64,000 nt of DNA from Candidatus Magasanikiibacteriota bacterium (lineage in GTDB: Bacteria > Patescibacteriota > Patescibacteriia > Magasanikbacterales > UBA922): NCBI GenBank assembly GCA_049287025.1, contig JBAQFA010000022.1, positions 30,225-94,224 of the forward strand. The letters run 5' to 3'. The translations under genes were made by a program, and so were the position numbers. The notes beneath the pieces are model-generated. The model was not told the origin of the DNA and did no database searches. It saw only the letters and a program-made list of their open reading frames with translations. Shown here piece after piece: positions 43 to 16,214 of the stretch; position 1 is the stretch's first letter; each line of letters starts with the position of its first letter.

Positions 43-69
43 TTTTTTAACAACTGACTGGAGGCGACC

Positions 70-291
70 ATGAGTCGCTCGACATTTGCTAGGAGGATGC
101 GCGAAGTGGCGAGGGCCTCTGGCCTTCGTCGTGGTGCTATCCGTCAGCAGGTAGTGGTATTCACCCCTAACGGCCAGTACGTGGGCCGAATCAAGCGGGT
201 GGAGGGATACCAGGTGGTGATTGCTTCTAGGTCGTTGATCGAGCGCAAGATCCGCGGATCTCGGATTCGCAAGATCACGCTCGTCGGCTAG
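70..291 (+). CDS. hypothetical basic 73-aa protein, compositionally foreign (high G+C)
   Basis: ORF with strong G/C third-position bias in AT-rich genome; own promoter and SD. Confidence 0.45.
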   Translation: MSRSTFARRMREVARASGLRRGAIRQQVVVFTPNGQYVGRIKRVEGYQVVIASRSLIERKIRGSRIRKITLVG

Positions 292-454
292 GGCATTCGT
301 GCTCAAGCCGACAAAAAAGGCACATTCAACAACCTACAAGGAGAACAAGGGGGGCCGACACAACAAGGAGGCCCAAAAAAGATTATCATGTTTGGTAGTC
401 TTTTTTGTTTTTATATTCAATATTTTGCTTTACATCTGAGTTTGTGTTAAAATG

Positions 455-545
455 ATCTTTGTTAGGAGCGCTTCCGTTCAATACGGGGGCTGAGAAGTAT
501 CCTTATAACTTGATCTAGGTAATGCTAGCGCAAGGAAACAGAAAC
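455..545 (+). promoter_or_regulatory. TPP (THI-box) riboswitch
   Basis: ggagcgcttccgttcaatacgggggCTGAGAagtatccttataaCTTGATCTAGGTAATGCTAGCGCAAGGAA closely matches the conserved thiM-type aptamer (CUGAGA, ACCUGAUCUGGAUAAUGCCAGCGUAGGGAA); downstream alternative hairpins and T-run; upstream TTGCTT-17-TAAAAT promoter near 427-455. Confidence 0.8.
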
Positions 546-615
546 ACTAATTTTGTTCACTAATCTTCACTAATAGTGTTTGTTGTTTCCTTGTTAGGAA
601 ATTTTTTTGTTTTTA

Positions 616-1247
616 TGAAAATTTTGATAATTGCCAATGGAGAAATTAAAAATTATGGATTTTATACATATTTAATTAGTCAGTCTGCTTTAGTTATTTG
701 TGCTGATGGGGGAGCGAATCATTGTCCTGGTTTAGACGTGGTGCCAGATTATGTAATTGGGGATTTTGATTCGGTTTCTAAAGATTTGTTGGAAGAATTA
801 AAAAATAATCATAAAACAAAAGTTATTTATGATCCAGATCAGGACAAAACTGATTTGGAATTGGCAATTAAACTTGCAGAATCATTTCAACCAGAAGAAA
901 TAAATATTATTGGGGCGATTGGTGATAGAATGGATCATACTTTAGCAAATATAATTTGTCTGGATCAAGTAAATAGAAAAATTAAAGCCAAAATTATAAA
1001 TGAAAAAAATGAAATTGAATTGATAGAAGATATTTGTGAGATAGAAGGGGAGCGGGATGATATCGTGTCTATTATCCCATTAAATTTGGTGACAGGGCTC
1101 ACTTATGAAGGATTGAAATATGGAGTAAAAAATAAACAAGTTGATTTGGGTTGGATTGGAGTGTGTAATCGTTTAGAAAATGATACAGCTAAAATTAAAA
1201 TAAATAGTGGTAAAATTTTGGTTATTAAGATTTCAGATAACAAATAG
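616..1247 (+). CDS. thiamine pyrophosphokinase (TPK)
   Basis: GGANHC and DYVIGDFDS motifs typical of TPK; ATG at 616 preferred over upstream alternative start at 576. Confidence 0.75.
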
Positions 1248-1296
1248 CAGATAACATTAAGCAGTAGACAAAATCTAAATGCTATCTGTTATCTGC
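1247..1296. repeat. composite palindrome gcagataaca...tgttatctgc with duplicated cagataac half-sites
   Basis: 10-bp perfect inverted repeat 1247-1256 / 1287-1296 plus direct copies. Confidence 0.5.
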
Positions 1297-1340
1297 ATTC
1301 TGAGACTATTAAACAACACACAAATTAATTAATAATAATT

Positions 1341-2744
1341 ATGCTTAATATTTCATCTGTCGACTACTCAATAATCATAATCTATTTTATTTCCCTACTC
1401 GCTATTGGCTATTTTATCAAGCACAAATTTATTGAGACTTCTGATTATTTCTTGGCGGGCAGAAGGTTAACCTTACCAATTTTTGTGGCCACGCTTGTTA
1501 GCACTTGGTATGGTGGTACTATGGGAGTAGTGGAATTATCTTTCAATTATGGTTTGGTCAATTGGCTGACGCAGGGATTTTTTTGGTATTTGAGTTATTT
1601 ATTTTTTGCTTTTTTCTTGGCCAAAAAAGTCCGTCAATCAGAGCTTTTTACGGTACCTGATCAACTAGAAAAATTTTATGACAAACGGTCGCGTTTTTTG
1701 GGTGGAATTTTTAGTTTTCTCATGGTGACGCCAGCGCCTTATATTTTATCTTTGGGAATTATTTTTTCGTTATTTTTTGGTTGGCCAGTCTGGGCTGGAG
1801 CCTTGTTAAGTACTATTATTACGATTTTTTATACTTATCGTGGTGGTTTTCGAGCCGATGTCATTACTGATGTGATTCAATTTTTTCTAATGTTTATTGG
1901 TATTGGTTTGCTAGTTCCTTTTGCTGTAGCAAAATTTGGGGGCTTAAGTTTTTTACAAGCCAATTTACCAGCCACGCATTTTAGTTTAACCGGGGAGTGG
2001 ACCACACAAATGATTTTAGTTTGGGGATTTATTGCTTTTTGGACTTTGCTTGATCCGAGTTTTTATCAACGTTGTTATGCTACCAAAAATGATAAAATCC
2101 CTAAGAAGGGAATATTAATTTCAATTTTATTTTGGATGGTGTTTGATTTTTTTACGACCACGATTGGTATGTATGCTCGGGCAGCGATGCCAGACCTAGA
2201 TCCAGCCACAGCCTTACCCATGTTCGCGATCGCTGTTTTACCAAAAGTTTTTTTAGGATTATTTTTTACTGGTTTGATCGCTTCTATTTTATCTACCGTA
2301 GATTCTTTTACTATGCTTGGGGCGATGAATCTCTCTCATGATTTATACAAGAAAATTTTTAAGCCAGATCTTAGTGGAGAAAGAGAAATAAAATTAACTC
2401 GTTACGGCATAATTTTTACGGCTGGAATTTCTTTAATCATTGCTATTTTTGCTAGATCAATTATTGGTATCTGGTATACTATTGGAACAATTGGTATAAG
2501 TGCTATGTTAATTCCTCTATTGTTTGGTTTTTTTTACAAACGTAAACTCTGTGCCAGTGCTTCATTTTATTCTATGATTTTTGGGTCACTTACTGCCATC
2601 GGCTGGCTAATTTATGGCTATGCCAATATGGTTGATGGTTGGGCTAGTTATTTATGGGGTATAGAGCCGATGTATCCCGGACTTATCGTATCACTGGTCG
2701 TTTATATTGGAATAACAATATTTCAAAATAAAAAATCTCTATAA
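1341..2744 (+). CDS. sodium:solute symporter (SSS) family transporter
   Basis: about 13 TM segments, LAGRRL motif near N-terminus. Confidence 0.75.
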   Translation: MLNISSVDYSIIIIYFISLLAIGYFIKHKFIETSDYFLAGRRLTLPIFVATLVSTWYGGTMGVVELSFNYGLVNWLTQGFFWYLSYLFFAFFLAKKVRQSELFTVPDQLEKFYDKRSRFLGGIFSFLMVTPAPYILSLGIIFSLFFGWPVWAGALLSTIITIFYTYRGGFRADVITDVIQFFLMFIGIGLLVPFAVAKFGGLSFLQANLPATHFSLTGEWTTQMILVWGFIAFWTLLDPSFYQRCYATKNDKIPKKGILISILFWMVFDFFTTTIGMYARAAMPDLDPATALPMFAIAVLPKVFLGLFFTGLIASILSTVDSFTMLGAMNLSHDLYKKIFKPDLSGEREIKLTRYGIIFTAGISLIIAIFARSIIGIWYTIGTIGISAMLIPLLFGFFYKRKLCASASFYSMIFGSLTAIGWLIYGYANMVDGWASYLWGIEPMYPGLIVSLVVYIGITIFQNKKSL

Positions 2745-2752
2745 AAACGAAC

Positions 2753-2784
2753 GACCCCCGACATGCAACTTGCACGCGGGGGTC
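2753..2784 (-). terminator. GC-rich hairpin terminator of high-GC gene
   Basis: gacccccg...cgggggtc stem with inner tgcaa/ttgca stem; T-run follows on minus strand. Confidence 0.55.
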
Positions 2785-2808
2785 TGTTCTCTCGCCGGGG
2801 TGACGAGC

Positions 2809-3276
2809 TCAGCTGTAGAAGCCGAGCCTCTGCCACCAGTGGGGCGGGAAAACGACGTTCGGGTTGAACTTCTGGTCGGCATCGGTGGATGACACCTTTA
2901 CCGGCTTGATCTGGACGTCCCTGTTCACGAAGAACTGGAACGTCACGAGGTCACGACCGATGTAGGTGGAAACCACAGCTACCCCGTCCGATCCCGACTC
3001 TACGTAGCCGTAGTAGTCGAAGCCGGCACCAATCTTGGGGACTTCGAGGTAGAAGCCCACCAAGGTGGTGAAGGGTCGGCCGTCCTCGCTACGCAACACG
3101 ATGTTGCGCATGCCAGGCGTCTCCTGACCGCCGTAGCTGAACTCGACCAGGTGATGGCTCGACTCCGCGAACTGGTTGAAGAAGTTGAACTTCTTCATCA
3201 TTTCGCTGGCGAGGAACCAGCTGGTGGAGGCGAACAGGACGACCAGCAATGCAAGCAGAATCGTGAGCTTGTTCAA
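2809..3276 (-). CDS. hypothetical membrane-anchored protein, compositionally foreign (high G+C)
   Basis: TTG start at 3276 preceded by GGAGAG; N-terminal TM helix; track ORF to 3348 would overlap its own promoter. Confidence 0.45.
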   Translation of the reverse strand: MNKLTILLALLVVLFASTSWFLASEMMKKFNFFNQFAESSHHLVEFSYGGQETPGMRNIVLRSEDGRPFTTLVGFYLEVPKIGAGFDYYGYVESGSDGVAVVSTYIGRDLVTFQFFVNRDVQIKPVKVSSTDADQKFNPNVVFPPHWWQRLGFYS

Positions 3277-3319
3277 TTGTCTCTCCAGATTTGGGTTGTT
3301 CTCAACTTCCGAACGATTC

Positions 3320-3348
3320 AATATAACATAAAAACAGACCTTTGTCAA
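3320..3348 (-). promoter_or_regulatory. sigma70-like promoter TTGACA-17-TATATT (minus strand)
   Basis: tgtcaa 3343-3348 and aatata 3320-3325 on plus strand. Confidence 0.5.
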
Positions 3349-3384
3349 GGTCTATTTAGTATAATTTAGCTAGATTTAGGCTTT

Positions 3385-4176
3385 TTATTTATTTTTAGTA
3401 AATACGACAGAATTTATAACTTTTTCTATATCTTTTATAGTAATTTCTGGGTATTTAAAATAAAAACTTAATGTTTTGAATTCATCACTATAGTCTTCAG
3501 GTAGTTTTAAAATGGCAATTATTCCATCTTTTTCATTCGCATAAAAATTAATTGCATAAAACACATAGGCTTCAAGATTATCTTCTCTAATTATAGTTTT
3601 TAAATAATTTTTATCATTAGTTATTGAAGAAGTGTTAAATTCATAATTATTTGTATGCCAATAATCTTTACCTGCAGTAAAATCTTTAGAAACACCACCA
3701 GCAAATTCATACCCATGATTAGATAAGTCAAGTACACGCCAACTATATTGCGAACCACTATCTAAACTATAATACTCTGGAGCTAATTTCGGTGATTGAT
3801 AATTATAATCCGTACTACTCACTGCTCCCAAAGGTATGGGAAAATTAAAAGAAATATTTACATCTTTACTTTCAAATTTTTTCCAAACAAATTTGTTAAT
3901 TTTTGGAATATAAACATCTACATTTTCTGATATTCTAGCATTGTTATAAACAAATTCTTCATTATTTTTAGGATAAATATAACATCCATTACCACAACTA
4001 ATTAATTCTTCTGGTGTGGTTAATATTTTACCTTCAACAGTGTTCAATTGAATTTTTTTAATTTCTTCTTTTTTTACTATTTCAACATTTTTGTTTACTA
4101 TTTCAACATTTTTGTTTTTTGTGGCACAGCCTGTAGTAAAAATAATAATAATTAGAACTAATAAAATTTTATACAT
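3385..4176 (-). CDS. lipoprotein, hypothetical
   Basis: lipobox FTTGC after signal peptide; internal 21-bp tandem duplication near 4075-4120. Confidence 0.5.
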   Translation of the reverse strand: MYKILLVLIIIIFTTGCATKNKNVEIVNKNVEIVKKEEIKKIQLNTVEGKILTTPEELISCGNGCYIYPKNNEEFVYNNARISENVDVYIPKINKFVWKKFESKDVNISFNFPIPLGAVSSTDYNYQSPKLAPEYYSLDSGSQYSWRVLDLSNHGYEFAGGVSKDFTAGKDYWHTNNYEFNTSSITNDKNYLKTIIREDNLEAYVFYAINFYANEKDGIIAILKLPEDYSDEFKTLSFYFKYPEITIKDIEKVINSVVFTKNK

Positions 4177-4180
4177 AAGT

Positions 4181-4441
4181 TTATTTATTTTTTAACCACC
4201 ATTTTTTAAAAAAGGGAATTGATAAAGTAGAAATAACAAAAGCAAGAGAGGGGACAACCGCATTTTTAAATGGTTCTGATAAATTGGCAAAATAAAAAAA
4301 TATAGTGATTACCAAATAAGTAGAAACCAGAATAATGAATCGGCGTGCCCAGCTCGTTTCCCAGGCTTTGTCTTTCTCTACCCGTTCATTACGTTCTTTT
4401 ATTTCATTTATTTGTTGTTGAAGTTCTTCATTTGTGGGCAT
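4181..4441 (-). CDS. small membrane protein
   Basis: ORF, one or two TM helices. Confidence 0.35.
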   Translation of the reverse strand: MPTNEELQQQINEIKERNERVEKDKAWETSWARRFIILVSTYLVITIFFYFANLSEPFKNAVVPSLAFVISTLSIPFFKKWWLKNK

Positions 4442-4451
4442 AAAATTTTAA

Positions 4452-4766
4452 TTATTTTTTAAAATATTTTTCTTTTATTAGCCAGATCAATCCCATAAGA
4501 CAAAAAAATAAAGCAAGAACGAGTGAATAGAGTGAATGGCCAACACCACATTTGATATCATCTGGGTTTAACCAGCAATCAATTGGACCGGCTAAAAATT
4601 TTGTATACAAACTCAAAATGATAGCGACTGCAATTAAATACAGACCTTTATGGTACCAGGCCTTACCTCTGGCTATTTTTTCTAGCGGTAAGTAGACTCC
4701 TAGGAAAATCATGCTGAGAGCTAGAGTAAAAAATAGTACTTGTATGATTGGTGATGTATTCATCAT
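4452..4766 (-). CDS. small membrane protein
   Basis: ORF, three TM helices; overlaps next gene by ATGA. Confidence 0.4.
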   Translation of the reverse strand: MMNTSPIIQVLFFTLALSMIFLGVYLPLEKIARGKAWYHKGLYLIAVAIILSLYTKFLAGPIDCWLNPDDIKCGVGHSLYSLVLALFFCLMGLIWLIKEKYFKK

Positions 4767-5386
4767 AATAAATTGTTAAGAGTAGAATATCCTAAATATA
4801 TGGCAAAGGCAATTAAAATACAACCGGCAATAAAAGAAATTATTTTCATTACTTTTTCATTGACAAATCTCTTGCCCATATGTGCTAAAAAAGAAATGAC
4901 AAATCCCCAAATTATTGCGCCCAAGATTACAAAGCCTAAATTTATCAAAAAATTAAGGTTATGTGTATTGTAGTTTGGGTTGGAAGCAAAGATGCTATAA
5001 AAACCTAGCCACGCAATGGGAGCTAAGGGGTTTGTGATGTTGATTAAAAATCCAGCCCAGAAAGTATCACCAAAAGTTTTTTTAATTTTTTTATCTAAAA
5101 TATTTTTTCCAAAAGCGTTTTTGATATCACCAATACCAAAGTAAATTAATAGTAGCACGCCAAAAGTTCCTAAGACCAGGGAAAAAGTTTGACTTTGGAA
5201 AAAAGAAGTAAAAGCAAAAAAGATTAAGATCAAATAAATGGCGTCGATCAAAACTGCACCCATGTTGGTTATAAACGCTGACCAAAATCCATGTTCTAGT
5301 CCGCGTCGAATAGTTAAAATAGTCACTGGACCAATAGCGGCTACAAAACTAATACCAAGGATAATGAATTTTAGAAAGTCGGGCAT
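4763..5386 (-). CDS. LysE/RhtB family translocator
   Basis: about 200 aa, 6 TM, N-terminal GPV..RGL motif. Confidence 0.5.
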   Translation of the reverse strand: MPDFLKFIILGISFVAAIGPVTILTIRRGLEHGFWSAFITNMGAVLIDAIYLILIFFAFTSFFQSQTFSLVLGTFGVLLLIYFGIGDIKNAFGKNILDKKIKKTFGDTFWAGFLINITNPLAPIAWLGFYSIFASNPNYNTHNLNFLINLGFVILGAIIWGFVISFLAHMGKRFVNEKVMKIISFIAGCILIAFAIYLGYSTLNNLL

Positions 5387-5390
5387 AAAA

Positions 5391-5939
5391 TTAAATCATT
5401 TTTAAAAAATTTCTAAAAATTTGTTTTCCATTTTCACCAGAGACTTCAGGATGGAATTGTAAGCCATATTTATTGCCAAATTTCATGGCTTCATTTTCAC
5501 AAGAAATAGATTTGGCCAATAACATAATATCAACCGGCAAAGAGACAAATTCAGAGTGTTCTTTTTTAAATAAAGTATTTTTATCTACGCCTTCAAATAG
5601 GGGATCATATTGAATAATTTCAATTGGTTCATCTTTACTAATCAATTCACCATGGCCAATTTGTCCGCCATACAAAAGACCTAATATCTGATGACCGAGA
5701 CAGATTCCTAAAACTGGAATATTAATATTTTTTATAAATTCAAATGGCTGAATAAATTTTTTATAATCAATTTGTGAAAGTTTGGTTGGTCCACCAGTAA
5801 TAATAATGCCAGAGTAAACGTTAAAATCATGATTTGTGATTTAATCAATGTTTACAACTATATTTTTATAACCAAAATCATTAAAAGTATTTTGAATATT
5901 TTTTAAAAACATGGTGCCACAATTAATAATACAGATCAT
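5391..5939 (-). pseudogene. class I glutamine amidotransferase (GuaA-N-like) interrupted by in-frame TAA
   Basis: GICLGHQ Cys and FHPEVS His motifs; ATG 5939, in-frame TAA at 5841-5843 (codon 33), frame continues ITNHDFNVYSGIIITGGP. Confidence 0.5.
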
Positions 5940-5952
5940 AATTTATTTTAAC

Positions 5953-6267
5953 TTACTTTTTTATAATTTTAATTCCTCTTAATCCTAAAATCAATAAAAC
6001 CAAAATAATTATTTTTAAAATATAGTGGCCATGTAAATCTAAAAAATTTTTTGTAAATGGAGTAACGTTGCCAACTAATAGATGTATAATAATAGAGATT
6101 GGTAGAGTAAGAAAAAGCCAATTGATTTTTGGTATGTCAAGTTTGATTTTTTTAAAGAGTTTGGTTAATAGGGGAGAAAGTAACCAAATTCCAAGAAAAG
6201 AAACAACAAAATCAAAAATTGCATAGCCACCCAATCTAAATTGACGTAGAAATTCAATAATAGACAT
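5953..6267 (-). CDS. small membrane protein
   Basis: ORF with 3 TM. Confidence 0.4.
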   Translation of the reverse strand: MSIIEFLRQFRLGGYAIFDFVVSFLGIWLLSPLLTKLFKKIKLDIPKINWLFLTLPISIIIHLLVGNVTPFTKNFLDLHGHYILKIIILVLLILGLRGIKIIKK

Positions 6268-6270
6268 AAA

Positions 6271-6882
6271 TTATTTATTAAATTTATTCCACTTTTCAAT
6301 CAAAGCTAAAATATCTTTTTCAAATTCTAGCATTAGTTTTTGATTGTTTTCCGCGGTTTTCCAGTTTGATCTTTCTTCAGCTCCGAGTAATCTGCCAAAA
6401 ATATCTCTAAAAAATCTTGGATAACCCAGGTCAGTATTTACTAACCATTTTTGATTTTTATTTTCCAAGAAAAGATATTTTTGTTTTTGAACAAATTCCT
6501 TTTTCATTTCTTCTAGATTAGAAATTTTATGCAAGGTTTTTTCATCTGGTATTATTTGTTCAGTATTAAAATTAAAAGGTAAGAAATGGGTGTGAGCATG
6601 AAAAACAGTTTGACCAGTAACACCGTGTTCAAATATTCCTACTTCACCATAGTATGTTTTTATAAACAATTTAACTTTTTCGTATAGTTCTATATATTTT
6701 CCAAAAGCGTCTTCTGACAAACTACCCATGGTAGAGACATGAGCTTTGGGAATAATAAGAATATGTCCTTCGGTGAGTGGGTGAACATCACAAACAATCC
6801 AAAATAAATTATCAGTATAGAGTGGATGTTTTAGTCCGATTTCACCAGGGCAGTGAGCGCAGTTGTTATCTTGATTATTCAT
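6271..6882 (-). CDS. HIT family hydrolase-like protein
   Basis: HAHTHFL histidine triad motif, CAHCPGE N-terminal. Confidence 0.55.
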   Translation of the reverse strand: MNNQDNNCAHCPGEIGLKHPLYTDNLFWIVCDVHPLTEGHILIIPKAHVSTMGSLSEDAFGKYIELYEKVKLFIKTYYGEVGIFEHGVTGQTVFHAHTHFLPFNFNTEQIIPDEKTLHKISNLEEMKKEFVQKQKYLFLENKNQKWLVNTDLGYPRFFRDIFGRLLGAEERSNWKTAENNQKLMLEFEKDILALIEKWNKFNK

Positions 6883-6925
6883 AAAATTACAACACTATTG
6901 TATCATCTTTTATTAAATAAAAAAA

Positions 6926-6950
6926 CTCCCCAGGGTTGGTGGGGAGTTCT
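6926..6950. terminator. bidirectional intrinsic terminator aaaaaactccccagggttggtggggagtt
   Basis: A-run, GC stem, T-run. Confidence 0.6.
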
Positions 6951-7019
6951 GTGTTTGAATTATTTTTTTATACCTATTATTCCACTAATGTAAATTTCAA
7001 TTTTTATATGTATTAAATA

Positions 7020-7517
7020 TTATTTATTGCACGCCTCATAAAAAAGTATAGCAGATTTTACTCGTAGGTATTCAATACAAGATGCCATCACTGGTTGAGC
7101 TTGTTCTGAAAATAATTTATCATCACAACCTTTATTTCTAGGTGATTTTCTACAATTTAAGATTTTTTCCGCTATATTATTGTTGTAAAATGAGTAACAG
7201 CCAAGTGCAATTTTATCTACCTGTTTTCCAATATCTAAATTTTTAGTAACACAGTCTTGATAATTTTTGTCAGATTGAAGTAATTTTATAGCTTTTAAGC
7301 TTATGGCATATTCTTCTTTTGTGAAAGTGTGAGACTGTGTACTATCGTTTTTATTATCAGTAGATTCAATATCATTGTTTGTTTGAACTGGTGGCTGAGT
7401 AATAGTTTTGGATTGTTCTGGATTAGCGGAATCATCATTTATTAGAGTGTCTTGTCCGGTAGTGGCACAGCCAGTTAAGAGGAGTGCAAAAGATAATGCA
7501 AAAATGATTTTTTTCAT
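7020..7517 (-). CDS. lipoprotein, hypothetical
   Basis: LLTGCATT lipobox. Confidence 0.5.
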   Translation of the reverse strand: MKKIIFALSFALLLTGCATTGQDTLINDDSANPEQSKTITQPPVQTNNDIESTDNKNDSTQSHTFTKEEYAISLKAIKLLQSDKNYQDCVTKNLDIGKQVDKIALGCYSFYNNNIAEKILNCRKSPRNKGCDDKLFSEQAQPVMASCIEYLRVKSAILFYEACNK

Positions 7518-7605
7518 AATAGTATGAAATGATTAATTAGTTAATAAAATTTGTATAATTTAAGCAAGATTGTTATATATGATGATTATATCACTTTTTT
7601 CCATA

Positions 7606-7633
7606 TAAAAAAACTCCCCAGGGTGGGGAAGTT
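7606..7633. terminator. intrinsic terminator aaaaaactccccagggtggggaagttt
   Basis: same family as 6926. Confidence 0.55.
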
Positions 7634-7643
7634 TAATTGTATT

Positions 7644-8690
7644 TTATGATTGATCACGTTGAATTCCACTAGGGGTTGCTTGAATTTTACCAAATCCTAG
7701 GGCTGACCCGTTTGTTTCTAAGTAGAAGTTCATTTTGTAAGTTTGTCCATCGTTTGAGACATAGGTATAGTTTGATTGTGGTGATAGTGGGTCAGATGGA
7801 ACTGGGTTCATAAATTGGTAAGGCTTTTCACATCCGGCTGGTTCAAAACCATTTTCTCCTAAACATGTGTAGTTTTTTGAACCTAGAATAATGGCTGAGT
7901 TTGCTAGAGGATATTTGTGGTTGTTTTGATAATATAGTTCTAAAGATGTTTGAATTCGTCTCATTTCGCTTATTCTTTGTTCATCTCTTTTTTTTGCTTC
8001 TAATTCTAATGTAACCTCATCTGGTAGAGCGGGGACATTAGTAATTAATGTTTTTAGTTCTTTGTTTAAAGCACACTCAGCTTTAGTTTTTACTACCATA
8101 GCATAACCAGCGTAAGAAACGTCTTGGAGAATGTCAATATTAGTTTTTTCCCAATTTTGAATAGTTGGATTCCACAAATACATTTTTTCAAATTCACAGT
8201 TACCTATAGTAAGCCCGCCTTGAGAAAATTGTGGCACTATAGAAATAAAGTTCCAGCCAGCATGTAGTTTTACTGGTCTGGTAAAGGCATCTTTACTAAC
8301 TTCTAGAGTAAATTTCGCTGGCTGTTTAAAATAAATCCACATGGGGGATAATTGTAAATAATCGCGATTCTGTGCCATTATTTGGTAATCAGCATCTTTG
8401 TATCCACCAGAAGTAGTGATATATCGACCAACAGATGGGGCATAGACATAGAAAGGTGTTAAGATGTTTGATAAATCATTATTTTCATACAAATCCATAC
8501 CAGAAAAACCACCTTCTGGTAATAAATTCCAGCCTTTAGCTATTTCAATTTCTATCAACCAATGGTCAGCGTTTCTTGGGCTAGTCTTATCAGGAATGCT
8601 AGTTAATTTGGAACTAGTCATAGCTTGAGCTATTAGAGCCGAGCCAAAAATGATGGTTAGAATGATTGTGAAGAAAAAATATTTTTTCAT
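7644..8690 (-). CDS. secreted protein with C-terminal pilin-like domain
   Basis: Sec signal peptide; LELYYQNNHKYP resembles pseudopilin globular-domain motif. Confidence 0.45.
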   Translation of the reverse strand: MKKYFFFTIILTIIFGSALIAQAMTSSKLTSIPDKTSPRNADHWLIEIEIAKGWNLLPEGGFSGMDLYENNDLSNILTPFYVYAPSVGRYITTSGGYKDADYQIMAQNRDYLQLSPMWIYFKQPAKFTLEVSKDAFTRPVKLHAGWNFISIVPQFSQGGLTIGNCEFEKMYLWNPTIQNWEKTNIDILQDVSYAGYAMVVKTKAECALNKELKTLITNVPALPDEVTLELEAKKRDEQRISEMRRIQTSLELYYQNNHKYPLANSAIILGSKNYTCLGENGFEPAGCEKPYQFMNPVPSDPLSPQSNYTYVSNDGQTYKMNFYLETNGSALGFGKIQATPSGIQRDQS

Positions 8691-8706
8691 ATTATATAAA
8701 TTTTAT

Positions 8707-8931
8707 TTAATCTTTTGGTAGAGCCGGTGGCGGTGGTATAACATTATCAGAATCAGAATTTTTAGTTTCAGTATTGTTTGTTTTTATAACAGCGTTATTT
8801 ACAGTTTCTTCATCACTTGGTAGAGCTGGTGGTTGTGGTGCCACCTCGTCATTTTTTTGTGATTTATTATAAGTAGTAGCACAGCCACTCATTATTAGTA
8901 TCAAAACTAATAATAACATTGTTTTTTTCAT
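8707..8931 (-). CDS. small lipoprotein
   Basis: MSGCATT lipobox; leader 8932-8960 duplicated at 7518-7550. Confidence 0.45.
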   Translation of the reverse strand: MKKTMLLLVLILIMSGCATTYNKSQKNDEVAPQPPALPSDEETVNNAVIKTNNTETKNSDSDNVIPPPPALPKD

Positions 8932-9049
8932 ATAGTATGAAATGATTAATTAGTGAATAGACTTTAGCATAATTAAGCTAAAATGTCAATATAAAATGGC
9001 TTGGTTATTATAGCATAATTTTTTGTATAAAAATACTTCAAAAATATAT

Positions 9050-9079
9050 TTGACTAAGTATATAAAATTTGGTTAAATA
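9050..9079 (+). promoter_or_regulatory. sigma70-like promoter TTGACT-17-TTAAAT
   Basis: immediately upstream of high-GC ORF, SD ctgagg. Confidence 0.4.
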
Positions 9080-9102
9080 TTTTTGGTAACCAACTGAGGC
9101 TG

Positions 9103-9300
9103 ATGATGTGTCTCTTTAGCGAGCTGTCCGAGGGATCGCACTTCCATCGGAAGGACGACCATGTGATCTACAAGAGGATGCGGCTGGCCTGGTATGTGTT
9201 TTGGCTCGGAATCTGCCGAGCCAACGCCGTCCGACTCGAGGATGGCAGTGGCCCGAAGTACTGTCGGGTCGCGGACAATACGGAGGTCGTCTGGGTCTAG
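9103..9300 (+). CDS. hypothetical 65-aa protein, compositionally foreign (high G+C)
   Basis: highest GC3 of the overlapping frames; promoter and SD; GC hairpin 9313-9340 after stop. Confidence 0.35.
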   Translation: MMCLFSELSEGSHFHRKDDHVIYKRMRLAWYVFWLGICRANAVRLEDGSGPKYCRVADNTEVVWV

Positions 9301-9413
9301 CCAACCCACCCCCCCCTGTGATATCGTGTTGCAGGGGGCAACCGAGATTGGGAGGATTTTTATAAACACCCACCATGACTTGCTTTGATTCTGTTTTATA
9401 AAACCGAGTTAGA

Positions 9414-9500
9414 GTAAGGAGACGGTGGGTGTTTTGTTTTATAAAAAAACTCCATAGGGTGGTGTTTAGGGTTCCAGAAAAAAAAGAAAATCAATAATAA
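9414..9500. repeat. direct repeat copy 1 (about 85 bp) flanking high-GC cassette
   Basis: about 90% identical to 9991-10082; contains terminator-like core aaaaaactccatagggtggtg. Confidence 0.7.
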
Positions 9501-9593
9501 AATTACTTGACAAATTTTGTGATATGTTATAGCATAAGACGCTGTATCAGTGGGCCTTTAGTGTCACTTGGACAATAAACGGAGGTGAGGACC

Positions 9594-9899
9594 ATGATCG
9601 TCTTTGGCTGGCTGAAGAAACTTCGGGAACGGAAGGTGCGACGCCTAGAGCAGCAGGAGGCTGCGAGGGCGAAGATGCGGCAGGCGATTGTCGCCTTCAA
9701 CGAGGAGGACTCTGTTGATCCGGTGGCTCGGATCAACAAGGTGGTGCCCATCCTGCAGGCCTACACCACCCTAGCCGACGCTTTCGACCCCGGGTGGCGA
9801 CAGTGGGGGAAGTGCGACCTCACGACTATTCCGGAACTCCACGAGTTCCGAGGCTACATCGGGGTCGTTTTCGCCGACTGTGAGAGCCTGTTCGACTGA
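9594..9899 (+). CDS. hypothetical 101-aa protein, compositionally foreign (high G+C)
   Basis: GGAGGTGAGG SD 9581-9590; TTGACA 9506-9511 promoter; high G+C. Confidence 0.4.
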   Translation: MIVFGWLKKLRERKVRRLEQQEAARAKMRQAIVAFNEEDSVDPVARINKVVPILQAYTTLADAFDPGWRQWGKCDLTTIPELHEFRGYIGVVFADCESLFD

Positions 9900-9990
9900 C
9901 CACAGTTCGTTGGCTTGTAGAGAGGGGGCAAGTCAACGGTACAACAACAACCATTCCACCCCTCGTTAATATTTCAGAATTGGAATAATA

Positions 9991-10082
9991 GCGAAGGAGA
10001 AGAGGAATGGTTTTTGTTTTATAAAAAAACTACATAGGGTGGTGCTTAGGGTTCCAGCAGAAAAAGAAAATCAATAATAAAA
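9991..10082. repeat. direct repeat copy 2
   Basis: see 9414-9500. Confidence 0.7.
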
Positions 10083-10106
10083 CCGACTATTGAGTCGGTT
10101 TTATTT
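10082..10106 (-). terminator. hairpin terminator aaaaccgactattgagtcggtttt
   Basis: 8-bp stem, T-rich on minus; near-identical copy at 10816. Confidence 0.55.
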
Positions 10107-10130
10107 GTCTTTTAATATGTTGTGGGGTTA

Positions 10131-10763
10131 TTAATAAAGAAACACACTTACTAATCCAACTAAAATAATAATAATGCCTAATATTTTTCTAACAACATCC
10201 TCATGCTTTTGATAAAATGATATAGCCCATTTTTGTGAAAACAATTTTGCCCACACGGATCCCATAAGAAAATAAATTGCGGGCAGTATTATGAAAGAAA
10301 TAAATAATACCCACCATGGGAATTCAACTTTTCTTATAGCAAAGAATACGCTCATAAAAAATACAGCATATTTTGGATTAAACAACCCAGTTAAAAAACC
10401 CATTCTTATGGCCTCAGTTTTAGTAAGTTCTTTTATGTGTTCTTTTTCTCCTTCTATTTTTTTTGTCATTATCTCTCTGGAGAGAATTGTTCTCATGCCT
10501 ACGCCAGTGAGATAAATTACACTCAAAATTTGAATTGTTTCAAAAGAAAAATCCCAAACTTTGGAGATGAGAGAAAAAGCGACAATTGACCAAATGATAT
10601 GTATTATGGTGGCCATAGCATTACCCATGGCTGTTTGGATGCCGGTTTTACGTGAGTAAATTAAAGAATTTCTAACAATGACAAAAATTGATGGTTCAAT
10701 TTTGAACCACTCCAAAACACCCAAGGCGCCAAACATTATGATTGATAGTATATTGTCTGCCAT
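10131..10763 (-). CDS. LysE/RhtB family translocator
   Basis: 6 TM, about 210 aa. Confidence 0.5.
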   Translation of the reverse strand: MADNILSIIMFGALGVLEWFKIEPSIFVIVRNSLIYSRKTGIQTAMGNAMATIIHIIWSIVAFSLISKVWDFSFETIQILSVIYLTGVGMRTILSREIMTKKIEGEKEHIKELTKTEAIRMGFLTGLFNPKYAVFFMSVFFAIRKVEFPWWVLFISFIILPAIYFLMGSVWAKLFSQKWAISFYQKHEDVVRKILGIIIILVGLVSVFLY

Positions 10764-10815
10764 ATCATTACATGATATTAAAATTTTTAAAAATAGTCAA
10801 ATAAAATTTTAGTAA

Positions 10816-10841
10816 AACCGACTGGTGGGTCGGTTTTATTT
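10816..10841 (-). terminator. hairpin terminator aaaaccgactggtgggtcggtttt
   Basis: repeat of 10082 hairpin. Confidence 0.55.
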
Positions 10842-10896
10842 GTCTATACTAGTGTTTAAAATCTCCTCCGGGGTTATGGGGTATTATTATTTGAAT

Positions 10897-11496
10897 TTAT
10901 ATAATTTTTATATACTCAGCAAACCTTTTGCCGTAATCGGATATGAAAATTATAGGGTTAAGATTTTCATCTTGAGCACCATTCATCATAAAATCTCCTC
11001 TTCTAGTTTCCAGAAAACCTAATGATATTAGTTTGTTAACGCCACCATAAATTAGGTATATATCATTTCCGCCTAATGACCTTATTGGTACAGGGTCTTG
11101 ATTGCTAAAAAGAGAAGCTAGTAAAATGCACTCGAATTCAGATAAATCATCTAATATTTTTAAGAAAGTTTTGCGTTCATCGATATCATTTATAATAGGT
11201 GTGTTCAATGTTTTTATAAAAAAATTTTTTAATAATCGTTTTTTTTCTTCCCTTGTCTCTATCTCAACTCGGTTTAGTATGTCTTCAATTAAATTGGTTA
11301 GGTCTTCCTTGTTGTGTTTAGACAAAGCAGACTCATTAATTGGATTTTGTTCCAATTCCTGTTTGACTTGTTCTAAAAATTTTTCTAATCTTTCAAATCT
11401 TTTTTCTTGTTTGTTTCCAAAATATAAAGTTGCAAGTGATCCACCTATATATGGGACAGCATTCAATCCCGCTTCAATTATGGTGTCTCGTTTCAT
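10897..11496 (-). CDS. hypothetical protein, co-oriented 26 bp downstream of clpB
   Basis: ORF; no recognised motif. Confidence 0.45.
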   Translation of the reverse strand: MKRDTIIEAGLNAVPYIGGSLATLYFGNKQEKRFERLEKFLEQVKQELEQNPINESALSKHNKEDLTNLIEDILNRVEIETREEKKRLLKNFFIKTLNTPIINDIDERKTFLKILDDLSEFECILLASLFSNQDPVPIRSLGGNDIYLIYGGVNKLISLGFLETRRGDFMMNGAQDENLNPIIFISDYGKRFAEYIKII

Positions 11497-11522
11497 ATTT
11501 ATAATATTAAAATAGTATTTTA

Positions 11523-14159
11523 TTATTTTATTTCAATCTTATCCTTATTTATTTCCACCTTCACCTTGTCACCATCCTCAATCTTTCCTTCTACAATTTG
11601 CATAGCGAGTTTGTCCAAGAGTTCAGTTTGCAAAACTCGTTTTAGAGGGCGAGCGCCGAGATTGGGATCATAACCTTTTTTGGCGAGCCAGTCTTTGGCT
11701 TTTTTGCTCACATCTAGTTCAATTTTTTTACCAAGCAGGCGAGTGGCGATTTTGGCGAGTTGTAAGTCAACAATTTCGCGGATCTGTTCCTCATTCAATG
11801 GATGGAAAGTAATAATATCATCTACACGATTTAGAAATTCTGGTTTAAATTGTTCACGCAGAGCTTCCATTACTTTATTTTTTATCATTTCTTCTTTTAA
11901 TTTTTTATCTCCATCGCCAGAAGCCGAAAATCCAAAGTCACCACTTCTACCCATTTGCATGATCATGTCTGAACCAATATTTGATGTCATAATAATGACC
12001 GTGTTTTTGAAATTTACTTTCCGGCCCTTAGAATCTGTCAGGTGGCCATCTTCCAGAATCTGCAACATCATATTGAACACATCAGGATGGGCTTTTTCTA
12101 TTTCATCAAATAAAATAACTGAGTATGGTCGGCGACGGACGATTTCGGTCAGTTGTCCGCCCTCATCATAACCAACATAGCCAGGAGGGGAGCCAATCAT
12201 TTTGCTAATCGCATGCTTTTCCATATATTCGCTCATATCTACACGCACGAGAGCATCTTCTTCATTAAACATAAATTCAGCCAGAGCTTTGGCTAGTTCA
12301 GTTTTGCCCACACCGGTTGGACCCATGAATATAAATGAACCAATCGGCCGTTTTTCTTCACTCACTCCAGCGCGTGATCGACGAATGGCATTTGATATGG
12401 CCGTGATAGATTCTTCTTGACCAATCACCCGTTTTTTCAAATCTGTTTCCATGTGCGCGAGTTTTTTTATTTCGTCCTGGAGCATTTTACTTACGGGAAT
12501 ACCAGTCCAACGCGCGACTACTGCGGCAATATCTTCTTCATTCACTTCTTCTTTTAGAATCGCTCGGCCTTTTTGAATTTCGGCCAAATGTTTTTCACTT
12601 TTTTTGATCGCTTCTTCCATCATCGGGATTTTGCCATAGCGAATCTCCGCGACTTTTTGCAAATCACCTTTACGTTCTTCAATATCCGCTTGTTGTTTTA
12701 GTTTATCAATTTCTTTTTTGTGTTCGCGAATTTTGGTTATGATTTCTTTTTCATTTTTCCAATGCACTTCCAATTCATGACTTTTTTCTTTCAAGTTGGC
12801 TAATTCTTCTTTTAATTTTTTCATCCGGTCTTTGGATTCACTATCTTCTTCAGTTTTTAGAGCGCGGAGTTCAATATCAATCTTCATCATTTTCCGTTTC
12901 ATTTTGTCCAGGTCATCGGGCATAGAATCTATTTCCATACGGAGAGCAGACGTGGCTTCGTCAATCAGGTCAATCGCTTTGTCTGGTAAAAAGCGATCAG
13001 AAATATAGCGCGTAGAAAGTTCTACCGCGGCTACAATAGCCGGGTCAGTAATCCGCACACCATGATGCACTTCATATTTTTCTTTTATACCACGAAGAAT
13101 CGCAATCGTGTCATCTACACTTGGTTCATGAACCATGACAGGTTGAAAACGGCGTTCAAAAGCGGCATCTCGTTCAATATATTTTTGGTATTCTTTGAGA
13201 GTCGTGGCGCCAATGGTATGAAGTTCACCGCGGGCCAGAGCTGGTTTCAACATGTTGCTTCCGTCAATCGCACCCTCGGTAGAGCCAGAGCCGACAATCG
13301 TGTGGAGTTCATCAATAAATAAAATTATTTTTCCATTAGCTTCAGTGATTTCTTTTAACACTGCTTTAAATCTTTCTTCAAATTCACCACGGAATTTTGT
13401 GCCAGCAATCAATGACCCAATATCCAAAGCAATCACTTCTTTATCTTTTATACTTTCTGGCACATCACCATCGACAATTCTTTGCGCTAGGCCTTCTACA
13501 ATCGCCGTTTTACCTACACCTGGTTCACCAATTAAGACTGGATTATTCTTTGTTCTACGAGAAAGCACTTGCATTACCCGACGCACTTCATCATCCCGAC
13601 CAATCACTGGATCAAGTTTTTCTTTACGCGCCAAGTCAGTGAGATTTTTTCCATATTTTTCCAAAGCTTGATATTTGCTTTCTGGCTCAGGTGAATCAAC
13701 TTTTTGGGTACCTCGCACTTTTGCTAAAACTTTTAAGACATCATCATACTGAACTGCTTGATTTGATAAAACATCACTAATTGGATTTTTGTTAGTCAAA
13801 AAAGCCAAGAGTAAATGTTCTACACTAATATAGTCGTCGCCCATTTTTTGCGCTTCATTGCCAGCATTTTGAATAATATACATCATGGCCTGACCCATTA
13901 AGATTTGTCCTAAACCACCATGAGACATCTGACCTTTTTGTTTCGGTAAAACATTAATCATGGCTTGGACTTCATTTCTCAGTTGCTCTAGATTAACATT
14001 TAATTTTTTCATGATAGACACAACCACACCATCTTCTTGTTCTAATAGGGCAGAGAAGAGATGAGGAGGTTCTACTTGCGGTTGGCCATTTTCATTGGCA
14101 ATTTGATAAGCGCGTTGTAGAGCTTCTTGTGATTTGTGGGTAAAGTTTTGTGGTGTCAT
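11523..14159 (-). CDS. clpB: ATP-dependent chaperone ClpB
   Basis: two AAA+ modules ([16 protein letters not shown]), coiled-coil middle domain, 878 aa. Confidence 0.92.
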
Positions 14160-14202
14160 AAAACATTGATTTCACTGATTAATATGGATTTCACTGAGAG
14201 CA

Positions 14203-14229
14203 TTAGCACTCTTAGTATCCGAGTGATAA
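14203..14229. promoter_or_regulatory. CIRCE-like HrcA operator TTAGCACTC-N9-GAGTGATAA
   Basis: matches CIRCE consensus TTAGCACTC-N9-GAGTGCTAA with one mismatch; 44 bp upstream of clpB. Confidence 0.65.
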
Positions 14230-14230
14230 T

Positions 14231-14258
14231 ATTATAACATCTTGTATTTTTTTGTCAA
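14231..14258 (-). promoter_or_regulatory. clpB promoter TTGACA-16-TATAAT
   Basis: tgtcaa 14253-14258, attata 14231-14236 on plus strand, abutting CIRCE. Confidence 0.6.
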
Positions 14259-14293
14259 ATTTGCTATTATTATAGCATAAAATTAGTTAAGAT

Positions 14294-14560
14294 ATGATTA
14301 ATATGCTAGATAAATTCAAAGATGAAAGCAAAAAAGTTGGTTTGGAAGTTAGACAAAAAGTAGCGACTTTTATTTTGGCTGGTTTTGGGTTAGTGGCTGG
14401 TTTGGCTTGGAATGAAGCCATCAAAGGGTTGATTGATAGATATTTTCCTCTAGCTTCTGGTGGTGGTTTATTGGCAAAGTTTTTGTATGCTTTTATTATT
14501 ACGATTGTGATCGTGGTGGTGTCAATTTATATTTTAAAGACAGAGAAGAAAAGTGATTGA
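14294..14560 (+). CDS. small membrane protein
   Basis: 2 TM ORF. Confidence 0.4.
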   Translation: MINMLDKFKDESKKVGLEVRQKVATFILAGFGLVAGLAWNEAIKGLIDRYFPLASGGGLLAKFLYAFIITIVIVVVSIYILKTEKKSD

Positions 14561-14562
14561 AT

Positions 14563-14645
14563 AGAACACAAATTTAACAAATTATTCCAAATCTTCACAA
14601 ATATATTTGTGGGAATTTGTCTGATTTGTGTAATTTGAGTTCTAT
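14563..14645. repeat. IR-bounded element (family C) tagaacacaaatt...aatttgagttcta
   Basis: 13-bp terminal inverted repeats; second copy 18134-18222. Confidence 0.5.
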
Positions 14646-14646
14646 T

Positions 14647-15375
14647 ATGAATGTCTTGGGAATTAAAATTAGTGAATTGTCAAAAAATCAAACACTAGAA
14701 AAAGTGGCTGAATTTTTGCATGGTGAAAAACAAAATATAATTTTTACCCCTAACCCAGAAATGCTCGTTGATGCTCAGAAAGATAAATATTTTAAAACTG
14801 TTTTGAATAGTGGTGATTTAAATGTGTGTGATGGTTTTGGTCTTTCTCTAGTTAGCGGTGTTAAGAGATATCCTGGTGTAGAACTTATGTTAGATATTTG
14901 CGCGTTAGCAGAAAAAGAAAACAAATCAGTGTATTTTTTAGGGTCTGGCGATAAAGAAGTAATTAGTAATTTGCAATTAGTAATTAAAGAGAAATATTCT
15001 GATTTAAAAATCGCCGGTGCTCACCCTGGACCCAAGTTACAAGTTACAAGTTACAAGTTACAAGTTGATGAACACGAAAACAATGATCTTGTCGCCGACA
15101 TTTCAATGACTGCACCGGATATATTATTCGTCGCCTTCGGTCATGGTAAACAAGAAAAATGGATTCATGAGAATCTAAAGGATTTACCAAGTGTACGAAT
15201 TGCTATGGGTGTGGGTGGATCATTTGATTTTATTTCTGGCAAAGTAAAACGCGCCCCTTTATTTATTCGCAAAATTGGGTTAGAATGGATGTATCGTTTA
15301 GCTATTCAGCCAAGCCGATTTGGTAGAATATTTAAGGCTACTTTTGTATTTATTTATTATTTTTTAAAAAAGTAA
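14647..15375 (+). CDS. WecB/TagA/CpsF family glycosyltransferase
   Basis: family-typical length and C-terminal FIRKIGLEWMYRL; ATG 14647 preferred over TTG 14617. Confidence 0.65.
   Translation: MNVLGIKISELSKNQTLEKVAEFLHGEKQNIIFTPNPEMLVDAQKDKYFKTVLNSGDLNVCDGFGLSLVSGVKRYPGVELMLDICALAEKENKSVYFLGSGDKEVISNLQLVIKEKYSDLKIAGAHPGPKLQVTSYKLQVDEHENNDLVADISMTAPDILFVAFGHGKQEKWIHENLKDLPSVRIAMGVGGSFDFISGKVKRAPLFIRKIGLEWMYRLAIQPSRFGRIFKATFVFIYYFLKK
15034..15061 (+). repeat. 7-bp tandem repeat (aagttac)x4 inside CDS
   Basis: perfect copies, fifth partial. Confidence 0.9.
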
Positions 15376-15377
15376 AG

Positions 15378-15457
15378 AATGTAGAATATTGAATATAGAA
15401 TACCATTGATTTTATTTGTATATTCTACATTCCATATTCTAAATTCTATATTCTAAT
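15378..15457. repeat. long AT-rich palindrome gaatgtagaatat...atattctacattc
   Basis: 13-bp perfect IR with about 30-nt loop plus further tagaata/tattcta repeats. Confidence 0.6.
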
Positions 15458-15458
15458 T

Positions 15459-16214
15459 ATGTTAAGTAAAAAAATAATCCAACACATCAACAAACTCGGT
15501 CAGAAAAAAGTTCGTCATGAAGAACATGAATTTATTATTGAAGGTATAAAGGGTATAAGTGAAGCTTTGGAATCTGACGCTAATATTCTTTTGTTGGTAG
15601 TAGAAGGTAATCGGCGCGATGAAAATGAATTTGTTGAATTAATTAAATTAGCAGAAAGACAACAAGTTTCAATAGAATTTTGTGGACGCAAAGAAGTGGA
15701 TGATATAAAAACGACTGATACTTTTCCTGGAGTTTTGGCAATTGTGGAGCAATCTGAGGTTGAGTTGAATGATTTAACAGGTAATATAATTTGCCTTGAT
15801 GGTGTCAAAGACCCGGGTAATCTTGGGACAATTATTCGTACCGCTGATTGGTTTGGTATAAAAAATATAATACTCGCCGAAGATTGTGTCGATCCATACA
15901 ATCCAAAAGTTGTACGCAGTACCATGGGTTCAATTTTTCGAGTAAATATTTTTGAGAGTGAGGGGATAGTGAGAGATTTGAGTTATTTACAAGAAGACGG
16001 ATATAAATTGAATGGTTTGGTGATGAACGGTGTTAATTTGGATAAACTTAAACCTGGGAATAAAGAAATTTATGTTTTAGGCAGTGAATCCCATGGTATC
16101 AGACCAGAGGTTGAAAAAATATTAGATAAAAAGTATACTATTTCTGGTTCTGGCTCGGCTGAATCTTTGAATGTTGCTGTCGCTTGTGGAATTTTATTGT
16201 CTCGTATATCCTGA
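15459..16214 (+). CDS. SpoU/TrmH family RNA 2'-O-methyltransferase
   Basis: C-terminal SPOUT motifs (LGSESHG, NVAVA). Confidence 0.7.
   Translation: MLSKKIIQHINKLGQKKVRHEEHEFIIEGIKGISEALESDANILLLVVEGNRRDENEFVELIKLAERQQVSIEFCGRKEVDDIKTTDTFPGVLAIVEQSEVELNDLTGNIICLDGVKDPGNLGTIIRTADWFGIKNIILAEDCVDPYNPKVVRSTMGSIFRVNIFESEGIVRDLSYLQEDGYKLNGLVMNGVNLDKLKPGNKEIYVLGSESHGIRPEVEKILDKKYTISGSGSAESLNVAVACGILLSRIS

Follow-up and report, generated by a model that had tools for sequence, protein, structure and literature searches.

Morons are extra genes in lambdoid prophages that carry their own promoter and terminator and have a base composition unlike that of their neighbours. The vls antigenic-variation locus of Borrelia consists of G+C-enriched recombination cassettes in an A+T-rich genome, and G+C-rich intergenic regions in A+T-rich genomes are often structured non-coding RNAs. 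The core-site consensus of integron attC sites is R'' RYYYAAC and R' GTTRRRY, and known stabilisers of mRNA include the 3' stem-loop "positive retroregulator" and the Shine-Dalgarno (SD)-like STAB-SD of the Bacillus thuringiensis cry genes. Here, we compare with these systems a small G+C-rich element, i3, in a chromosome of Candidatus Magasanikbacteria (candidate phyla radiation, CPR; Patescibacteria). It is one of five such islands (i1 to i5) in the window, by which we mean the whole stretch of 64,000 nucleotides (nt) analysed, and hence not an isolated oddity. We consider it likely that positions 9050-9442 form a complete, autonomous accessory transcription unit.

In the mechanism that we propose, a near-consensus sigma-70 promoter would drive a short, SD-bearing leader followed by a cytoplasmic protein of 64 to 65 amino acids (aa), probably a five-stranded small beta-barrel. 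The transcript would end with a GC hairpin and then a long, G.U-rich hairpin with a U-tract; this putative terminator would halt transcription ahead of the next unit and probably also shields the 3' end of the mRNA. The i3 unit would be one of a few "moron-like" mini-genes (i1 to i5) confined to the lineage; these would occupy variable intergenic slots, be gained and lost between related species, and have strongly G+C-rich codons compared to the A+T-rich host. Its parts are as follows, L084 being the locus that carries the only i3 homologue found (see below):

9050 to 9078, plus strand: sigma-70-type promoter (TTGACT at 9050-9055, 17-nt spacer, TTAAAT at 9073-9078), from direct reading and conservation in L084
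9086 to 9105, plus strand: short A/C-rich 5' leader with the SD GAGG at 9096-9099
9103 to 9300, plus strand: i3 small-protein gene, 65 aa from the ATG at 9103, stop codon TAG at 9298-9300
approximately 9309 to 9338, plus strand: GC-rich hairpin 1, directly after the stop codon, from the minimum free energy (MFE) fold
9364 to 9442, plus strand: hairpin 2 and U-tract, with an 11-bp outer stem (AAACACCCACC/GGTGGGTGTTT) and an inner stem of 13-17 bp, followed by TTTTGTTTTAT

An initial annotation of this DNA had described a high-G+C stretch with several overlapping frames at 9050-9400, and the stretch is real: in 120-nt sliding windows, G+C exceeds 0.5 at 9077-9401 (mean 0.53), compared to 0.337 for the whole window. 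The start of that interval holds, but the element extends beyond its end to the terminator U-tract at approximately 9442. The G+C contents at the three codon positions (GC1/GC2/GC3) of the plus-strand open reading frame (ORF) at 9103-9300 are 0.56/0.39/0.79, a coding-type periodicity, and its GC3 is the highest of all overlapping frames (0.44-0.63 in the others), as the annotation had also proposed. Host genes have a GC3 of 0.249 ± 0.042 with a maximum of 0.327 (36 long ORFs), placing i3 approximately 13 standard deviations above them. The encoded protein includes the sequence MCLFSELSEGSHFHR.

When 1.84 billion representative proteins were scanned in full with HMMER, a single true homologue emerged, P0003, of 65 aa (56% identity, E 7e-16). 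The two proteins align end to end with ORF length kept, and P0003 is encoded on L084, a 1053-bp contig from another metagenome sample (ERZ27248911). Two further HMMER matches (P0004 and P0005) were discarded on reading as repetitive false positives with WxAFWLG repeats. In a word-indexed protein search, i3 by itself retrieved no homologue, and the alignment of i3 and P0003 retrieved only P0003; protein scans of IMG/VR and the JGI metagenomes, tblastn against phages and blastn against plasmids gave no i3 match. L084 has the identical TTGACT-17-TTAAAT promoter pattern, an ORF of the same length and both 3' hairpins. Judged by the alignment, i3 more likely starts at the second ATG (9106), so that the plus-frame ORF of the initial annotation stands, but probably with 64 rather than 65 aa.

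Of the nucleotide differences between i3 and L084, 23 lie at first, 13 at second and 33 at third codon positions. Saturation has been reached at synonymous sites (proportion of synonymous differences, pS, 0.72; of nonsynonymous differences, pN, 0.26), and dN/dS is approximately 0.13 by the NG86 method. When all six frames of the aligned block were compared, the plus frame had the lowest pN/pS (0.36) and the highest amino acid identity (0.56); the minus frames show a non-coding substitution pattern (pN/pS 0.52-1.49) and have no homologues of their own. From this pattern we conclude that the plus frame from 9103 or 9106 to 9300 is protein coding and that i3 is a conserved, previously unannotated small-protein gene. 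The all-frame homology check that the initial annotation had called for thus comes out in favour of the plus frame: there are neither conserved minus-frame homologues nor a lack of any conserved frame. An assembly chimera was ruled out since independent samples show the same joining of an A+T-rich promoter to a G+C-rich ORF. Contig JBAQOB010000143.1 of GCA_049304355.1 is 99.97% identical over window positions 131-15710, and a Logan contig from SRR28062879 is 100% identical over 6822-13890.

The promoter and SD that had been noted for the plus frame only are present, and neither signal was found ahead of the minus-strand ORF. Both hexamers, the 17-nt spacing and a TG in the spacer, two bases ahead of the -10 hexamer, are the same in L084; the remaining spacer sequence differs. 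A consensus scan did not list this promoter because TTAAAT lacks the A at position 2. The promoter is probably active, and transcription would start near 9086. The SD GAGG lies 3 nt upstream of the ATG at 9103 and 6 nt upstream of that at 9106. In predicted mRNA folds, the SD/start region (9096-9108) pairs with the last codons of the ORF (9285-9300; ..UGG GUC UAG), and in L084 positions 98-116 pair with 295-308. In these models, the pairing may sequester the translation start.

The initial annotation had also described a GC hairpin followed by an inverted repeat, and both are real: the i3 3' region has an MFE of -58.9 kcal/mol with a z-score of -6.2 against dinucleotide shuffles (-8.5 for L084). 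Hairpin 1 is kept in L084 with one double (compensatory) change and several one-sided changes, and an analogous GC hairpin lies 3' of the i5 ORF. The inverted repeat forms part of the outer arms of hairpin 2 (CACCCACC at 9367-9374 and GGTGGGTG at 9424-9431); the inner stem contains 3-6 G.U pairs. Hairpin 2 is strand-specific, with sense versus antisense folding energies of -35.5 versus -22.0 kcal/mol in i3, -38.3 versus -26.6 kcal/mol in L084 and -25.8 versus -11.7 kcal/mol in i5. It is 86-88% identical between i3 and L084 and approximately 76% identical to the i5 copy. One inner-stem pair changes from C-G to U-A between i3 and L084, and two outer-stem pairs change from C-G to U-A between i3 and i5 (CC/GG to TT/AA in the DNA). 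The automatic consensus fold of 5 sequences misaligned the outer stem, and for this reason single-sequence folds and a manual register were used. Hairpin 2 together with TTTTGTTTT has the make-up of a factor-independent terminator, with a strand-asymmetric and covarying fold, and we infer that it is the intrinsic terminator of the plus-strand transcript.

In the window and approximately 100 fetched loci, a hairpin-2 profile matches only i3, i5 and L084, and i4 weakly, which marks the element as particular to these units rather than a repeat spread over the genome. A loose terminator pattern gave 15 matches in IMG/VR, all of them by chance and none with a G+C-rich upstream region, and the specific hairpin-2 pattern had no match in the JGI metagenomes. 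Near the 3' base of hairpin 2 lies an SD-like AAGGAGA, invariant in all 5 copies examined:

9416 to 9422, plus strand: AAGGAGA
9996 to 10002, plus strand: AAGGAGA
56577 to 56583, minus strand: AAGGAGA
L083 and L084, one copy each: AAGGAGA

A GTG or ATG located 4-8 nt after this motif opens a mini-ORF of 5-13 codons that reads across the U-tract. The mini-ORF was rejected as a gene, its frame and length not being conserved.

Relatives were obtained from the cluster, at 90% identity, to which the neighbouring sodium:solute symporter (SSF) belongs. The syntenic relative L100, a groundwater Magasanikbacteria metagenome-assembled genome (GCA_003510435.1), is 81-86% identical to the window in host genes at the nucleotide level (ClpB 86%), with dS values of 0.6-0.9. 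It is without the entire window block 7633-11520, which contains a pilin-like gene, a truncated second lipoprotein copy, i3, i4, LysE and a 199-aa ORF; at L100 18372-18424, the promoter of a 167-aa lipoprotein abuts the ClpB terminator. Thus, i3 lies within a lineage-specific insertion, and the unit, present in one species and absent from the other, is accessory. L100 also lacks i1 at the matching site and has an i2 orthologue at the same site. In a third lineage (L104 2207-3143, from SRR22387951), the i2 slot downstream of SSF holds a 66-aa ORF and a zeta-toxin gene. The slots thus turn over, and the one downstream of SSF takes up varying accessory modules. The gene context of the i3 homologue in L084 differs from that in the window. 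For loci of GTDB species anchored on ClpB, the island side of this gene was without synteny and gave no empty site; a ClpB-anchored scan places the window in Candidatus Magasanikbacteria.

The genes around i3 are cellular (thiamine pyrophosphokinase [TPK], SSF, LysE, HIT and ClpB). The suspicion that the locus is recombinogenic, raised in the initial annotation on account of duplicated lipoprotein genes and direct repeats beside i3, is supported by the missing block in L100 and by a direct repeat that brackets i4:

9432 to 9502 and 10012 to 10082, plus strand: 71-nt direct repeat, 94% identical

The first copy overlaps the i3 U-tract and reaches up to the i4 promoter. The repeat contains an apparent decayed reverse-strand terminator hairpin (ACTCCATAGGGTGG; elsewhere ACTCCC...GGGGAG). 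The duplicated lipoprotein genes (7020-7517 and 8707-8931) have duplicated 5' ends and promoters, with repeats at 7459-7573 and 8873-8986 that share 70-75% identity; the second gene is a stub of 74 aa, inside which proline-rich repeats occur (8707-8737 and 8809-8839). This duplication is followed closely by the portion with i3 and i4 of the block that L100 lacks. The pilin-like gene in the block (7644-8690, minus strand) encodes a 348-aa protein with a weak Pfam match to T2SSG (type II secretion protein G/pilin; E 0.019). Direct repeats of 36 nt (10075-10110 and 10810-10845, 89% identical), each a bidirectional terminator hairpin, flank the LysE gene (10131-10763, minus strand) on its two sides, which suggests that this gene also came in as a cassette. 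At the beginning of the window, a thiamine pyrophosphate riboswitch (454-553, plus strand; RF00059, 67.8 bits), the only match at the Rfam gathering score, is conserved in L100 and precedes the TPK gene (576-1247) and SSF (1341-2744).

Neither the i3 protein nor the antisense ORFs have a match in Pfam, NCBIfam, PHROG, PADLOC or the PDB sequences. The i3 protein lacks a signal peptide and lipobox, and its longest hydrophobic run is approximately 11 residues, so there is no membrane-spanning stretch. An AlphaFold2 model from an alignment of i3, P0003 and i5 has five strands (mean predicted local distance difference test score 72.9, predicted template modelling score 0.56) and a low-confidence loop at residues 29-38. 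The best Foldseek hits in the PDB were EF-P domain I, eIF5A, CAP-Gly and Sm (template modelling [TM] score approximately 0.58, E at least 0.7), and among predicted viral structures there were many uncharacterised phage proteins of 60-90 aa (TM 0.6-0.7, E 0.05-0.3). With moderate confidence, it is reasonable to regard i3 as a five-stranded small beta-barrel in this model; by analogy with small phage and accessory proteins, our guess would be that it binds or modulates a partner.

The i3 unit has four companions in the window. All five ORFs have the GC3-rich signature, and in every unit the ORF is preceded by a TTGACA-type promoter and an SD and followed by a hairpin terminator:

26 to 396, plus strand: unit i1, TTGACA promoter, 73-aa ORF at 70-291 (GC3 0.69), terminator
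2715 to 3352, minus strand: unit i2, TTGACA-17-TATATT, ORF of approximately 155 aa at 2809-3276 (GC3 0.85), GC hairpin terminator
9507 to 10025, plus strand: unit i4, TTGACA-17-TAGCAT, 101-aa ORF at 9594-9899 (GC3 0.78), two-hairpin terminator of the i3 design
56555 to 56955, minus strand: unit i5, TTGACA promoter, 70-aa ORF at 56681-56893 (GC3 0.66), GC hairpin, hairpin-2 terminator

These four (GC3 0.66-0.85) are all orphans, and the sister-island proteins gave nothing above noise in Pfam, PHROGs, NCBIfam, PADLOC or the PDB sequences. The i2 protein has a hydrophobic segment at its N-terminus. For i4, a homologue (P0002, 72% aa identity) is encoded on L083, another contig of ERZ27248911, with flanks that are approximately 95% identical and a coding sequence with dS 0.42 and dN/dS 0.42. 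Judged by sequence, i5 is probably a distant paralogue of i3. GC3-rich orphan genes (GC3 0.54-0.94) also occur in other Magasanikbacteria and Falkowbacteria loci:

L100 4052 to 4729, minus strand: G+C-rich orphan gene, near-consensus TTGACA promoter
L009 1836 to 2162, minus strand: G+C-rich orphan gene, near-consensus TTGACA promoter
L010 11146 to 11475, plus strand: G+C-rich orphan gene, near-consensus TTGACA promoter
L029 5439 to 6599, plus strand: G+C-rich orphan gene, 386 aa
L022 1189 to 2601, plus strand: G+C-rich orphan gene, 470 aa

The products of the L029 and L022 genes end in a basic C-terminal tail, and neither matches a Pfam family. A literature search turned up no description of G+C-rich mini-genes in CPR genomes.

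Several points weigh against the account of i3 as an autonomous accessory unit. The -10 hexamer agrees with the consensus at 4 of 6 positions, expression of the gene is inferred, and the ORF is not called by gene callers in two identical public assemblies. The family consists of three sequences. The structure model comes from an alignment of three sequences, and none of the fold matches is significant (Foldseek E at least 0.05). Protein comparison ties i5 only weakly to i3: hhalign aligns i5 with the i3 alignment over the full length at 25% identity, with an E value of 0.0017 and a probability of 15%, and BLASTP finds no similarity between i3 and i5. Because no phage or mobile-element genes adjoin i3, "moron-like" refers to architecture and not to origin. 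Finally, the account leaves the cause of the G+C richness unaccounted for.

The GC3 richness appears to be long-lived rather than a relic of fresh transfer. Third-position G/C versus A/T states of i3 and L084 (32/19/9/5) match independence at GC3 values of 0.78 and 0.63. The clearest case is i2, which has 62% aa identity to its syntenic L100 orthologue, a dS of 1.16 and a dN/dS of 0.23, with GC3 values of 0.85 and 0.78 between flanking genes of 0.2-0.33. At four-fold sites of i2, 22 of 45 differ and 9 of these 22 are G<->C exchanges, compared to only approximately 13% in ClpB and SSF; an excess of this sort would be expected if some force drove silent positions towards G or C. Moreover, the coding regions fold better than shuffled sequences (z-scores of -2.5 for i3, -3.75 for L084 and -3.2 for a third coding region). 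A rough two-state calculation from the i2 third-position tables predicts that neutral decay from a GC3 of approximately 1.0 would arrive at approximately 0.74, against observed values of 0.78 and 0.85; for both i2 and i3/L084, the test rests on small genes and pairwise comparisons. Neutral decay is thus only mildly excluded, and we therefore rate active maintenance as plausible, in a tentative way. In that proposal, i1 to i5 and similar Magasanikbacteria and Falkowbacteria genes would constitute an undescribed class of CPR accessory cassettes whose G+C-rich codons and highly folded mRNAs are actively maintained in the face of the strong A+T bias of the host, a possibility that we hold with reserve. 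Selection could be responsible, e.g., for mRNAs that resist AU-directed RNases or are translated under special conditions; alternatively, G+C-biased gene conversion could act at cassettes that are often exchanged via their conserved promoter and terminator flanks. Under active maintenance, the covarying hairpin and AAGGAGA would be part of the machinery for cassette expression or exchange.

The strongest competitor for the same composition data is that i3 is a passive relic of recent horizontal transfer, with the composition of a G+C-rich donor, too recent to have drifted and with nothing maintaining it. An atypical composition in an accessory gene is what such a relic would show, the different G+C contents of i3 (0.58), i5 (0.49) and L084 (0.475) could be stages of decay, and the margin by which i2 escapes neutral decay is small, as shown above. 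However, no homologue from a G+C-rich organism was found among approximately 15 billion proteins, nor any in phages, plasmids, IMG/VR or the JGI metagenomes, and in an independent sample the G+C-rich ORF is again accompanied by its A+T-rich promoter and terminator. The saturated divergence of i3 and L084, both GC3-rich with uncorrelated third positions, and the G<->C excess of an i2 gene that is syntenic in two species also speak against recency. In addition, GC1 (0.52-0.56) and GC2 (0.36-0.39) lie below what would generally be expected of a genome with a GC3 of 0.8. We regard a recent relic as rather unlikely.

The accessory context invites comparison with integrons, in which case hairpin 2 would be an attC-type recombination site and i3 plus i4 a short cassette array. 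Like an integron cassette, i3 is a small ORF followed by a structured, imperfect inverted repeat of 70-80 nt whose structure is kept more than its sequence. Moreover, i3 and i4 are in tandem and in the same orientation, i4 is bracketed by the 71-nt direct repeat, and the cassette set varies between relatives. On the other hand, each unit has its own promoter, i1, i2 and i5 are solitary, and by eye the outer arms (TATAAAC.../...GTTTTGT) misfit the R''/R' consensus, with only AAAC and GTTT being complementary. Its G.U pairs also make the hairpin considerably more stable as sense than as antisense RNA, and a U-tract follows, as in a terminator. No integrase was identified, no search of the window having been aimed at one. 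An integron-like origin is improbable.

Equally, we would give little chance to a type I toxin-antitoxin-like system, i.e., a small toxin made from a very stable mRNA with a sequestered SD and controlled by an antisense RNA. The small ORF, its own promoter and the heavily structured mRNA would fit, as would the folds predicted for i3 and for L084, in which the SD and start codon pair with the final codons of the ORF, and the zeta-toxin module in the matching SSF-adjacent slot of L104. But the protein is modelled as a soluble all-beta barrel without a membrane-spanning stretch, no convincing antisense promoter was found, and there is no PADLOC or Pfam match; the 5'-3' pairing is an MFE prediction for two sequences only.

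A structured non-coding RNA, with the ORF as a by-product of few stop codons, would be in keeping with a G+C-rich island in an A+T-rich genome, a coding region that folds somewhat better than shuffles and a strongly structured 3' untranslated region. Yet there is no Rfam family match at i3 at the gathering threshold, a relaxed scan of 8950-10120 gave only chance-level matches to miRNA and leader models, and hairpins internal to the coding region differ between i3 and L084. The clear codon-position periodicity, the conserved ORF length and ends at 56% aa identity, and substitutions that track codon positions with the lowest pN/pS in the sense frame make this reading very improbable. A gene on the minus strand (the 98-aa ORF at 9073-9369 or the 86-aa ORF at 9116-9376) is scarcely credible: both exceed the plus ORF in length, and the 98-aa frame is still open in L084, at 134 aa, but it stays open only as the complement, codon for codon, of a G+C-rich gene, and its ends are not conserved, it runs across the terminator hairpins, its pN/pS is 0.78 with an aa identity of 0.42 (0.56 in sense), the codon-position G+C of the two ORFs is un-genelike (0.68/0.39/0.57 and 0.61/0.69/0.44), and there is neither a preceding promoter or SD nor a Pfam or PHROG match.

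As an orphan small gene, i3 is of an ordinary kind; what is unusual is the persistent G+C-rich coding together with a dedicated terminator. It shows that conserved small genes in CPR genomes are missed by gene callers, and the cassette design of consensus promoter, G+C-rich ORF and two-hairpin terminator marks variable slots in the genome of an ultra-small symbiont. If these genes do have a separate codon-composition equilibrium, they would offer a natural system for studying what holds local composition away from the genomic mutational equilibrium. The roles of mRNA selection and biased gene conversion, a long-standing question in bacterial genome evolution, would then become addressable.

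How does the autonomous i3 unit compare with the described systems? With the vls locus of Borrelia it shares a local G+C excess, adjoining lipoprotein genes and signs of recombination, but it has neither silent cassette arrays nor the architecture of an expression site, and the units are independent genes. With SH3-, KOW- and Sm-like beta-barrels, including those of phages (e.g., DUF1653-type), the protein shares its size of 64-65 residues, five predicted strands and the TM scores (0.58 with EF-P domain I, 0.6-0.7 with small proteins of phages); it differs in having no sequence similarity to them and no significant match. As in the known mRNA stabilisers, the small unit closes with a 3' stem-loop of high stability and has an invariant, untranslated AAGGAGA, and by analogy the stem-loop may have a stabilising role. 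Unlike STAB-SD, to which it has no sequence relationship, the i3 motif is inside the terminator hairpin and at the 3' rather than the 5' end. The likeness to phage morons lies in a single small ORF set between a promoter and a factor-independent terminator among unrelated genes, with a composition sharply unlike its flanks and a presence that varies between relatives. The differences are that i3 has no prophage context (no PHROG match, no similarity to phage records, cellular neighbours), that units of the i3 type share a dedicated terminator element, and that their composition looks long-lived.

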